From NCBI RefSeq assembly GCF_004346205.1, contig NZ_SMAM01000006.1, positions 38,839 to 102,838 on the forward strand: a DNA stretch of 64,000 nt. Direction: 5' to 3'. Shown piece by piece: positions 27,691 to 28,444 of the stretch. The translations under genes and the position numbers were made by a program. The notes beneath the pieces were generated by a model. The model was not told the origin of the DNA. It saw only the letters and a program-made list of their open reading frames with translations, and did no database searches. The DNA is from Bibersteinia trehalosi (lineage in GTDB: Bacteria > Pseudomonadota > Gammaproteobacteria > Enterobacterales > Pasteurellaceae). Numbering within the stretch: position 1 is the first letter of the stretch; every line of letters starts with the position of its first letter.

Positions 27691-27742
27691 CAAACAAGCG
27701 GTGCATTTTGCAAAAAAATCTGCAAAATGCACCGCTTGTTTG
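27691..27742. terminator. perfect 22-bp inverted repeat made of two opposed USS (terminator/insulator)
   Basis: CAAACAAGCGGTGCATTTTGCA-aaaaaatc-TGCAAAATGCACCGCTTGTTTG; lies immediately 3' of the Cys-rich small gene and upstream of znuA. Confidence 0.6.
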
Positions 27743-27753
27743 ATTAAATTAAA

Positions 27754-27915
27754 TTATGCTTTGCAACTTTCTTGACGGCAGTCGCAAGTTGTACCACAAC
27801 GGCATTCACCTTCTGGGCAGCCGCAGTTTTGACCGCAGATACAAGTTGGGCTGCATTGGCAAGGGTGAGATTTGCATTGTACATTGTCTGTTGGATATAC
27901 TTTGTTTACTGTCAT
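27754..27915 (-). CDS. 53-aa cysteine-rich metallothionein-like protein (below ORF-track cutoff)
   Basis: MTVNKVYPTDNVQCKSHPCQCSPTCICGQNCGCPEGECRCGTTCDCRQESCKA: 12 Cys in repeated CxC-x3/4-CxC pattern. GGAG RBS 8 nt upstream of ATG; MerR-type promoter upstream; followed by hairpin terminator. Confidence 0.7.
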   Translation of the reverse strand: MTVNKVYPTDNVQCKSHPCQCSPTCICGQNCGCPEGECRCGTTCDCRQESCKA

Positions 27916-27977
27916 TTTGAATTACTCCGTAAAAGTGTTTAACTAGTGGTGAGAGAGCTCTCATCAGAACGGCGCAA

Positions 27978-28008
27978 ATCATAAAGATTAACCTAAGGTT
28001 AAGGTCAA
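27978..28008 (-). promoter_or_regulatory. MerR-type promoter/operator driving the Cys-rich gene
   Basis: On minus strand: -35 TTGACC, 19-bp spacer, -10 TATGAT; spacer contains dyad TTAACC-N3-GGTTAA (plus coords 27988-28002). Confidence 0.65.
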
Positions 28009-28054
28009 ATATTTTTCTCTACTTTTTTTAAAAAGTTGTCTAAAAGGATAAAAA

Positions 28055-28444
28055 ATGAACATTGGTCAAGCTGCAAAAGCCTGTGGACTCTCTTCAAAGC
28101 AGATTCGCGATTATGAAAAATTGGGATTGATTCAGCCATCCTACCGTACAGAATCTAACTACCGAACCTATGCTGAGGCAGATATCCAACGCTTGGGGTT
28201 TATTCGTCATGCACGAGAGGTGGGCTTTTCATTAGCACAAATTGGTGAGTTATTGGCTTTCCGTGATGCACCAAGCCATAATTGTGAAGAAATTTTACAT
28301 TTTACAGATAAGCATATTGCGGATTTATCTGAAAAGATTGAGGCATTGCAGTTAATGAAAGAGAAATTACTTGAATTGCGTGAGACCAGCTGTCTCAGTG
28401 GCGGTAATGCAGGCTGTGCGATTATGAGTTTTGAGGTGAAGTAG
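28055..28444 (+). CDS. MerR-family heavy-metal-responsive transcriptional regulator (CueR/ZntR/CadR clade)
   Basis: 129 aa; N-terminal HTH MNIGQAAKACGLSSKQIRDYEKLGL; coiled-coil dimerisation helix; C-terminal metal loop C-x7-C (CLSGGNAGC) plus Cys in HNCEE at the position equivalent to ZntR C79. Confidence 0.8.
   Translation: MNIGQAAKACGLSSKQIRDYEKLGLIQPSYRTESNYRTYAEADIQRLGFIRHAREVGFSLAQIGELLAFRDAPSHNCEEILHFTDKHIADLSEKIEALQLMKEKLLELRETSCLSGGNAGCAIMSFEVK

Follow-up and report, generated by a model that had tools for sequence, protein, structure and literature searches.

A metallothionein-like small gene and a CueR-derived regulator as a candidate metal-buffering module in Bibersteinia trehalosi and related Pasteurellaceae

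A 64,000-nucleotide stretch of Bibersteinia trehalosi DNA (assembly GCF_004346205.1, contig NZ_SMAM01000006.1, positions 38,839 to 102,838 of the forward strand; hereafter the window) was found to carry a small cysteine-rich gene, here called MT1, divergently oriented to a gene for a MerR-family regulator. The two genes, which we interpret below as a candidate metal-buffering module, share a compact intergenic region, and the features of the locus are as follows.

27691..27742, minus strand: intrinsic terminator of MT1, a perfect inverted repeat of two opposed uptake signal sequences (USS) of the Apl type, with a T-run
27754..27915, minus strand: MT1, metallothionein-like gene (53 aa, 12 Cys), from translation of the open reading frame (ORF)
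27925..27928, minus strand: Shine-Dalgarno sequence GGAG of MT1, 9 nt upstream of the ATG; GGAG or AGGAG is kept there in all lineages
27978..27983, minus strand: -10 hexamer TATGAT of the MT1 promoter, TAT[G/T/C]AT in all lineages
27985..28005, no strand assigned: operator, the 21-bp pseudo-palindrome ACCTTAACCTtAGGTTAAtcT, with the core TTAACC-N3-GGTTAA at 27988-28002
28003..28008, minus strand: -35 hexamer TTGACC of the MT1 promoter, conserved across lineages
28055..28444, plus strand: MerR-family metal sensor, derived from CueR (129 aa), divergent from MT1; Pfam domains MerR, MerR_1 and MerR-DNA-bind

The translation of MT1 (MTVNKVYPTDNVQCKSHPCQCSPTCICGQNCGCPEGECRCGTTCDCRQESCKA, 53 residues) was identical to the one in a preliminary description of this DNA, which had reported a clean minus-strand ORF with 12 cysteines preceded by a GGAG ribosome-binding site (RBS). 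Cysteine makes up 22.6% of the peptide (12/53), compared with 0.9% in window ORFs of 200 aa or more, and the residues follow the pattern C-x4-CxC-x3-CxC-x3-CxC-x4-CxC-x3-CxC-x4-C, which includes five CxC pairs. They are preceded by a conserved N-terminus of 13 residues free of cysteine, in which MTVxKVYP is kept and whose Tyr7 is the sole aromatic residue of the window peptide; none occurs from C14 to C51. The Nicoletella homologue has a tyrosine at position 39 and a glutamine in place of the single histidine, His17. The peptide has no signal peptide and no hydrophobic or leader-like segment. At 53 aa (52-53 aa in the homologues) it lies below the limit of about 10 kDa used for metallothioneins, its cysteine share and CxC pairs fall within the usual range (about 15-30%, with CxC, CxxC or CC motifs), and its Cys-rich region is poor in aromatic residues, so that by an operational definition based on size, Cys content, CxC motifs and few aromatics MT1 qualifies as a metallothionein; the property that defines the class is the formation of metal-thiolate clusters.

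The promoter of MT1 has the suboptimal architecture typical of MerR-activated genes, with a spacer of 19 bp (27984-28002) between the two hexamers. A promoter scan with standard spacers of 16-18 bp misses it for this reason. The 6-3-6 dyad abuts the -35 hexamer, and the 21-bp pseudo-palindrome begins within that hexamer; the register is that of E. coli PcopA and of the Haemophilus influenzae CueR box (PMC10187127). Only one copy of the operator was found in the window, where 0.21 chance matches are expected. The 19-bp spacer with its dyad operator between -35 and -10, within the 19-20 bp typical of MerR-type targets, was kept in seven lineages, unlike the flanking DNA. The preliminary description had thus named the hexamers, the spacer length and the dyad correctly; it had placed the dyad at the centre of the spacer, and this part has to be amended to the CueR-box register next to -35. 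Its perfect 22-bp inverted USS pair after the small gene was likewise recovered: the terminator arms (27691-27712 and 27721-27742) are 22 nt long and 100% complementary, enclose an 8-nt loop, each hold the Apl-type USS ACAAGCGGT, and are accompanied by a T-run on the minus strand. The terminator insulates the co-directional downstream gene znuA from MT1. A hairpin follows the stop codon at every homologous locus, with sequences that are unrelated between lineages. At the other end of the transcript, every lineage has a short stem-loop close to where the MT1 mRNA is predicted to start, with differing sequences (GAGAGCTCTC in the window). When the corresponding regions were compared (27916-27977 of the window and the matching 5' untranslated regions of loci L001, L081, L082, L088, L090 and L092), folding z-scores ranged from -1.7 to +0.4, which is not significant, and a conserved 5' hairpin was rejected.

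A few animal-associated Pasteurellaceae other than B. trehalosi were found to have the same gene pair. When the regulator was searched against one genome per species, only Lonepinella koalarum gave a close relative (78% identity), and the locus there contains a divergent 52-aa ORF with the same 12 cysteines and the same promoter. Cluster look-ups added Nicoletella semolina and metagenome-assembled variants, and further regulators of this clade were preceded by an uncalled gap of about 450 bp, each holding the MT1 ORF. All eight recovered loci with a clade regulator (the window, Lonepinella L001, Nicoletella L081 and L094, and the metagenome assemblies L082, L088, L090 and L092) carry the divergent 52/53-aa ORF, in at least six different genomic contexts, with the following flanking genes.

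Window: znuA and plsX
Nicoletella, L088 and L094: plsX and fabH
L092: DsrE, YeeE and TusA genes followed by plsX on one side, fabH on the other
Lonepinella L001: ABC (ATP-binding cassette) transporter gene and rppH
L082: mrcB
L090: major facilitator superfamily (MFS) transporter gene and the RNase T gene

The regulator alone co-occurs with MT1 across the six contexts, and no gene for a modifying enzyme, an exporter or a partner is kept beside it; the two are very likely a regulator and its target, as judged from this genomic pairing. Since only these two genes travel together across differing flanks, the adjacency of znuA in the window is incidental, and a link of MT1 to znuA and Zur, which was considered, was rejected on the grounds that the adjacency is not conserved among the loci. 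The more distant MerR homologues (40-46% identity), scanned at 79 loci, gave no convincing divergent Cys-rich small ORF (sORF); all that turned up were off-frame ORFs where the DNA is GC-rich and a single DUF326-like protein of the four-helix type, and the pairing with MT1 is therefore specific to this clade. Searches of plasmids returned no MT1.

Within the family, all 12 cysteines are invariant in nine distinct MT1 sequences, and outside the cysteines the same holds for M1-V3, for V6-P8 and for several positions with Gly, Pro or Glu. Pairwise ratios of nonsynonymous to synonymous substitution (dN/dS) ranged from 0.02 to 0.28, with dS from about 0.4 to saturation, and the sole indel among the homologues is a single in-frame codon. 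Invariant intergenic columns are concentrated in the promoter/operator block (26/31, vs 2/40 and 1/40 in the flanks), which reads TTGAC(C/A)TT(A/G)ACCT(T/A)AGGT(T/C)AATCTTTAT(G/T/C)AT; the RBS is conserved as well. These patterns make it virtually certain that MT1 is a real gene under purifying selection, even though gene callers mostly miss it and it is uncalled in most assemblies. The homologue search proposed for the 53-aa peptide has yielded a family of 52/53-aa members; the strict co-occurrence with the regulator, the invariant cysteines, the low dN/dS and the footprint limited to promoter and operator lend strong support to the metallothionein-like reading offered at the outset.

Some further observations concern the placement of the cassette. 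In L081, L088, L092 and L094 it splits the usually contiguous rpmF-plsX-fabH cluster; the window keeps plsX beside the cassette, with znuA standing in for fabH on the other side, and in Lonepinella, which has USS of the Hin type, the cassette lies elsewhere. Occurring in genomes with Apl-type and with Hin-type USS, the module therefore spans both USS clades of the Pasteurellaceae. In L092/L093 (2881-5024), genes for a DsrE-like protein, a YeeE/YedE-type sulfur transporter and TusA lie between the regulator and plsX, which may be a coincidence. The exception among the distant loci, L030 of Rhizobium mongolense (4342-4713, minus strand), encodes a 123-aa Cys-rich protein of the four-helix type near a distant MerR homologue; it resembles DUF326/Csp proteins by eye only and would represent another sequestration-type neighbour of a MerR protein, unrelated in sequence.

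The regulator matched PF00376, PF13411 and PF09278, all above the cut-offs, in a Pfam scan, and consists of an N-terminal helix-turn-helix (HTH), a dimerisation helix starting at Cys77 and a metal-binding loop, C113-x7-C121. It aligned over its full length with the structures of CueR, MerR, CadR and PbrR, the best match in the PDB being E. coli CueR at 38% identity. C113 and C121 align with C112 and C120 of CueR, and C77 with S77 of CueR and C79 of the Bacillus megaterium MerR. The MerR HTH, the C-x7-C loop and the Cys at the position equivalent to C79 of ZntR, all read earlier from the 129-aa sequence, were therefore borne out, and so was the caution in leaving copper versus zinc or cadmium ambiguous, given a CueR-derived protein with a Cys at the Ser77 position.

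Among the NCBIfam models, that of CueR (TIGR02044) scored best, at 120 bits against a cut-off of 147.4. The ZntR models TIGR02043 and NF007069 gave 99 and 104 bits, short of their cut-offs of 168 and 143; the loop of the regulator, CLSGGNAGC, has no CC pair and no His, unlike that of ZntR, where Cys-Cys, His and Cys serve two Zn(II) ions. The CadR/PbrR model TIGR02047 gave 97 bits (cut-off 151), with the three-Cys ligand set present. The loop spacing is C-x6-C in CadR and C-x8-C in PbrR, unlike the C-x7-C of the regulator. Scores on the MerR model were below that for CueR, and those on the NmlR and SoxR models were poor. The homologues of the regulator form a tight clade at 72-98% identity, followed by a gap and then by the CueR proteins of Pasteurellaceae, Neisseria and Moraxella at 55% or less; its nearest characterised relatives are the Pasteurellaceae CueRs, at about 50% identity, from which it is derived.

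Clade members carry the loop TSCLS(G/D)xxxGC, while canonical CueRs combine Ser77 with CxG(N/D)xxxxC. The motif APSHxC77 was present in 15/15 clade regulators aligned (APSHNC in 14 and APSHSC in P0028), so that Ser77, through which CueR excludes +2 ions, is replaced by Cys throughout, and C113-x7-C121 was invariant in all sequences of the regulator alignment (A1). Engineered CueR S77C and GolS S77C are known to keep the response to +1 ions (Cu/Ag/Au) and to gain one to Hg(II), and upon deletion of zntA they also respond to Zn/Cd/Pb (PMC9733647). In its ligand set, the clade is a natural version of engineered CueR S77C, and the Ser77-to-Cys change probably extends the response to ions of the Zn(II)/Cd(II) type.

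The operator shows a close kinship with the copper regulon. In Glaesserella, Mannheimia granulomatis and Actinobacillus equuli, canonical cueR lies back to back with (DUF411-)copZ-copA in divergent orientation, and the copZA promoters read TTGAC(C/T)TTAACCTA(G/A)GGT(A/T)A(A/G)GG..., with 19-bp spacers; the MT1 operator has the same core, TTAACC-N3-GGTTAA, in the same register. It also has the left half-site of the H. influenzae CueR box ACCTTaA-N7-TaAAGGT (PMC10187127) and conforms to the ACCTT..-N7-..AAGGT register. A metagenome operator scan further identified 11 contigs of Pasteurellaceae with Hin-type USS on which an almost identical promoter (TTGACCTTAACCTTAGGTTAATGTTTATGATTTGCGCC) drives a gene for a secreted Met/His-rich DUF305 protein (PF03713), with no regulator adjacent; this gene is probably a member of the CueR regulon, to judge from its promoter. 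MT1 is thus wired with a promoter of the copper-regulon type. On these contigs (for example L096 5457-5864, minus strand; also L097-L102 and L104-L107), TTGCGCC follows the -10 hexamer as in the MT1 promoter, and the DUF305 gene has an rdgB-like gene as its divergent neighbour. Among the named top homologues of the A. equuli CueR there was none from Bibersteinia, Nicoletella or Lonepinella, which is absence of evidence only.

The sequence relationships of the peptide were more elusive. An exhaustive phmmer search of 1.84 billion representatives returned only the two clusters of the MT1 family itself, as did a word-indexed search. A relationship to BmtA/SmtA was rejected: none of nine MT1 members matched PF02069 (Metallothio_Pro) at E values up to 10, and the phmmer search reached nothing beyond MT1 itself; nor is the peptide detectably related to any other described family. 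With E values up to 10 allowed, a profile built from the nine MT1 sequences matched one PDB entry only, the metallothionein chain 1QJL of 28 residues (E=0.38), in which nine cysteines occupy positions identical to those of MT1 from C14 to C40. We take this chain to be the 3-metal beta domain of sea-urchin MTA. Five of the nine members also matched the Pfam family PF12749 (Metallothio_Euk) weakly, at a sub-threshold E of 0.059 or worse. The likeness to eukaryotic metallothioneins is probably a convergence on the CxC cluster scaffold.

Considered together, these results suggest, with a probability that we would put at roughly 80%, that MT1 and the regulator form a self-contained two-gene metal-buffering module, in which a metal-induced cytoplasmic metallothionein would be controlled by a CueR-derived sensor; for MT1 itself, metal sequestration is the likely function. 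In such a module, a dimer of the regulator would sit on the pseudo-palindrome across the over-long 19-bp spacer. In the metal-free state the -35 and -10 hexamers would, by analogy with the MerR/CueR paradigm, be out of phase and the promoter off. Cys113 and Cys121 of one subunit would hold a thiophilic metal ion, probably with Cys77 of the other as a further ligand, and the metal-bound dimer would then under-twist the operator and realign the hexamers, allowing RNA polymerase to transcribe the 53-codon gene. The cytoplasmic peptide may fold around metal-thiolate clusters, for which its Cys count would allow roughly 4 divalent ions or 6-8 Cu(I), and by lowering the pool of free metal would switch the sensor off again. 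Within the probability given, Cu(I) has about an even chance of being the main signal and is favoured because the promoter is of the copper-regulon type; a divalent ion in that role is plausible but less probable.

Several points weigh against this interpretation. Pfam and NCBIfam scans returned no model for the window MT1, and its resemblances to metallothioneins are statistically insignificant and could reflect composition alone. An AlphaFold2 model of MT1, built on a small alignment, was unstructured (pLDDT, the predicted local distance difference test, 46; pTM, the predicted template modelling score, 0.21), as would be expected of an apo-thionein, yet this is no evidence for one. The regulator falls under the cut-offs of every NCBIfam metal-sensor equivalog, and its effector is therefore not readable from homology; Cys77, in turn, speaks against a pure Cu(I) sensor. 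Finally, a canonical cueR-copZA system in the same genomes, if present, would imply cross-talk through the shared operator core.

A second, unrelated case of a small Cys-rich gene under a CueR-type promoter came from a plasmid DNA search, which led to a Glaesserella parasuis record in which a CueR paralogue with S77 is divergent from a 47-aa ORF with 13 cysteines (MNDIIKNPNAHCGCQSCTGQNCNPKCNCQNGEPCICQNCTCGDCDCK), here called MT2. It was located as follows.

L108 2335-2478, minus strand: MT2 of G. parasuis, NZ_CP071488.1
L112 7665-7808, minus strand: MT2 of B. trehalosi USDA-ARS-USMARC-192, CP003745.1

Its promoter, TTGACC-19 bp-TAT(G/A)AT (TATGAT in G. parasuis), has a related dyad. MT2 belongs to a block on a resistance island, with the order DUF305 - MT2 - cueR2 - CDF - merR, where CDF denotes a cation diffusion facilitator, and in B. 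trehalosi L112 the block lies beside aph, tetR/tet and an insertion sequence (IS) element. MT2 occurs in Glaesserella, Bibersteinia, Histophilus, Mannheimia, Actinobacillus and Moraxella, and is mostly annotated antisense as a 59-aa hypothetical protein (432 contigs, vs 9 with an exact match to the 47-aa sequence); the study of ICEHs1 and metal tolerance in H. somni makes no mention of it. A BLASTP E of 0.28 and an hhalign probability of 3.8% led us to reject homology between the two peptides. The two cases show that small thionein-like ORFs driven by promoters of the CueR type recur in this group and have been overlooked. On the same island, a MerR regulator (L108 3810-4208, plus strand) is divergent from the CDF gene (3126-3740, minus strand; L112 equivalents 9161-9559 and 8475-9089). 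This regulator carries the Cys equivalent to C79 of ZntR together with a C-x7-C loop, and it forms a probable Zn/Cd sensor-exporter pair with the CDF gene, which makes it a helpful reference for the metal specificity of the MT1 regulator.

The latter pair bears on the principal alternative, namely that the MT1 module responds chiefly to Zn(II)/Cd(II), with a three-Cys sensor (C77', C113, C121) acting like CadR, PbrR or ZntR and MT1 as a Zn/Cd-thionein that buffers zinc, for example against zinc intoxication by the host. We regard this as less probable than a copper system, though plausible. The MerR divergent from the CDF transporter, which is borne on an integrative and conjugative element (ICE) in Glaesserella and Bibersteinia, shares the C79-equivalent and the C-x7-C loop and is a further point against a sensor of Cu(I) alone; with the same Cys layout, it keeps the zinc/cadmium explanation of the module alive. 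The regulator of MT1 is nevertheless much nearer to CueR (about 50% identity) than to this protein (37%), scores on the ZntR and CadR models below CueR, lacks the CC and His ligands of ZntR and has a loop of CueR length. A Cys at the Ser77 position is a hallmark of MerR sensors of +2 ions, aligns with C79 of MerR and is invariant in the clade, but in engineered CueR S77C the response to Cu(I) persists, and Zn/Cd/Pb are sensed only with zntA deleted (PMC9733647). Nine cysteines of MT1 are spaced as in the metallothionein chain 1QJL, and MT1 adjoins znuA in the window; that adjacency is, however, not conserved, and the operator is the CueR box of the copZA promoters.

Alternatively, MT1 may not sequester metal at all, and could instead be a thiol-rich peptide that buffers redox state or electrophiles, a chaperone or regulatory partner of another protein, or a precursor of the type of ribosomally synthesised and post-translationally modified peptides (RiPPs), with the regulator sensing a non-metal stress. 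No family model gives MT1 a function, and its conserved Cys-free N-terminus, MTVxKVYP, has no obvious role in a thionein, but the peptide lacks a signal or leader-like region and has no conserved enzyme, exporter or partner. The sulfur-trafficking genes DsrE, YeeE and TusA lie beside the regulator in one lineage, whereas the regulator is the only companion of MT1 across the six contexts. With a regulator that keeps its full metal-binding loop and scores poorly as NmlR or SoxR, and an operator of the copper regulon class, this explanation is improbable. That MT1 is a chance untranslated intergenic frame and the regulator acts elsewhere, as its omission by gene callers in most assemblies and the label 'hypothetical' in some annotations might suggest, is effectively refuted by the comparative data, in which the frame, the start, the RBS and the 12 Cys codons are kept despite near-saturated synonymous sites, dN/dS stays at 0.02-0.28 and the sole indel is in-frame.

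The remainder of the window offers a setting for the module. The two genes flanking it are listed here.

26654-27610, minus strand: znuA (NCBIfam, 466 bits)
28422-29456, minus strand: plsX

The window proteins are 98-100% identical to B. trehalosi entries, and the DNA contains 16 USS of the Apl type and 0 of the Hin type. Neither P-type ATPase nor copZ motifs were found in the 64 kb. Just past znuA lie a gene for a DUF805 membrane protein (26073-26582, minus strand) and a 1503-aa ORF (21365-25876, minus strand) with an N-terminal signal-like segment and long Ala/Gln-rich repeats, autotransporter-like by appearance; both seem unrelated to MT1.

According to a 2025 review, the characterised bacterial metallothioneins are essentially the BmtA/SmtA/PmtA group and MymT. 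The full-text literature on metallothionein combined with Pasteurellaceae genera, MerR or CueR gave no description of MT1, and no Pasteurellaceae metallothionein is described in the searchable literature. The suggestion that the system is not a described feature of this clade thus stands as regards publications; it has to be qualified in that UniProt automatically names the Nicoletella MT1 homologue, as well as the Moraxella MT2, 'Metallothionein', while NCBI calls the Nicoletella protein hypothetical. MT1 very probably represents a new thionein family coupled to a natural three-Cys derivative of CueR. If confirmed, it would be a third, sequence-unrelated family of bacterial thioneins, with a eukaryote-like CxC scaffold, and the regulator would be the natural counterpart of CueR S77C and offer a direct test of how a single residue decides whether MerR proteins select mono- or divalent ions. 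For bacteria that live in sheep, horses and other animals as respiratory pathogens or commensals and are exposed to toxic copper and zinc inside phagocytes, the module would then also be a candidate fitness factor. MT1 and MT2 moreover illustrate how small Cys-rich genes escape annotation.

A broader idea, which we put forward tentatively and hold to be somewhat less than an even bet, is that hidden, polyphyletic thionein genes with CueR boxes, for the most part not annotated or assigned to the wrong strand, are part of the metal defence of Pasteurellaceae and Moraxellaceae, MT1 with its natural CueR-S77C answering copper as well as zinc and cadmium, and MT2 perhaps being co-selected through feed. 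If so, the third cysteine would have evolved to let a single buffer respond when the host poisons the bacteria with copper or with zinc/cadmium, and livestock feed supplemented with copper and zinc may co-select the ICE-borne MT2 along with DUF305, CDF and antimicrobial-resistance genes.

Compared with known systems, the module most resembles CueR-copZA/copA of E. coli and H. influenzae (PMC10187127) in the domain layout and Cys-x7-Cys loop of the regulator, the divergent genes, the TTGACC hexamer, the 19-bp spacer and an operator core, ACCTTAACC-N3-GGTTAA, in the same register. It differs in that the regulator has Cys77 and the loop CLSGxxxGC instead of CxGNDxPEC, and in that its target is a Cys-rich sORF and not a P-type ATPase with a chaperone. 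With the engineered CueR77 and GolS77 (PMC9733647) it has in common the CueR scaffold, a loop of CueR length and the third Cys at position 77; unlike in the laboratory mutants, the loop sequence of the natural protein differs, and the broadened response is known from the mutants alone.

On the side of the peptide, BmtA/SmtA/PmtA (PF02069, with the ArsR-family SmtB) and mycobacterial MymT are comparable as small Cys-rich cytoplasmic proteins, induced by excess metal and presumed to sequester it, but MT1 shares with them no sequence similarity, no zinc-finger-like fold signature and no conserved His ligands. The regulators of BmtA/SmtA and MymT are repressors of the ArsR or CsoR type, as opposed to the MerR activator at MT1. 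Eukaryotic metallothioneins (1QJL) have a similar CxC-dominated scaffold, to which MT1 adds three extra cysteines and the conserved 13-residue Cys-free N-terminus.

The closest functional precedent is CadR-zrd of Pseudomonas aeruginosa, where CadR, a MerR-family protein, activates the unannotated small Cys-rich zrd, for which metal sequestration has been proposed (PMC12301328, 2025). Both systems place a MerR-family sensor beside a small Cys-rich ORF missed by annotation; however, Zrd has two mononuclear Cys4 zinc-ribbon sites in place of the CxC thionein scaffold, and CadR belongs to a different MerR subfamily with a different operator. MT2, finally, is like MT1 in being divergent from a CueR-type regulator, with a TTGACC-19 bp promoter and a related dyad, and both occur in B. 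trehalosi, but the regulator of MT2 keeps Ser77, and the surroundings of the gene include DUF305, a CDF exporter and genes for antibiotic resistance.

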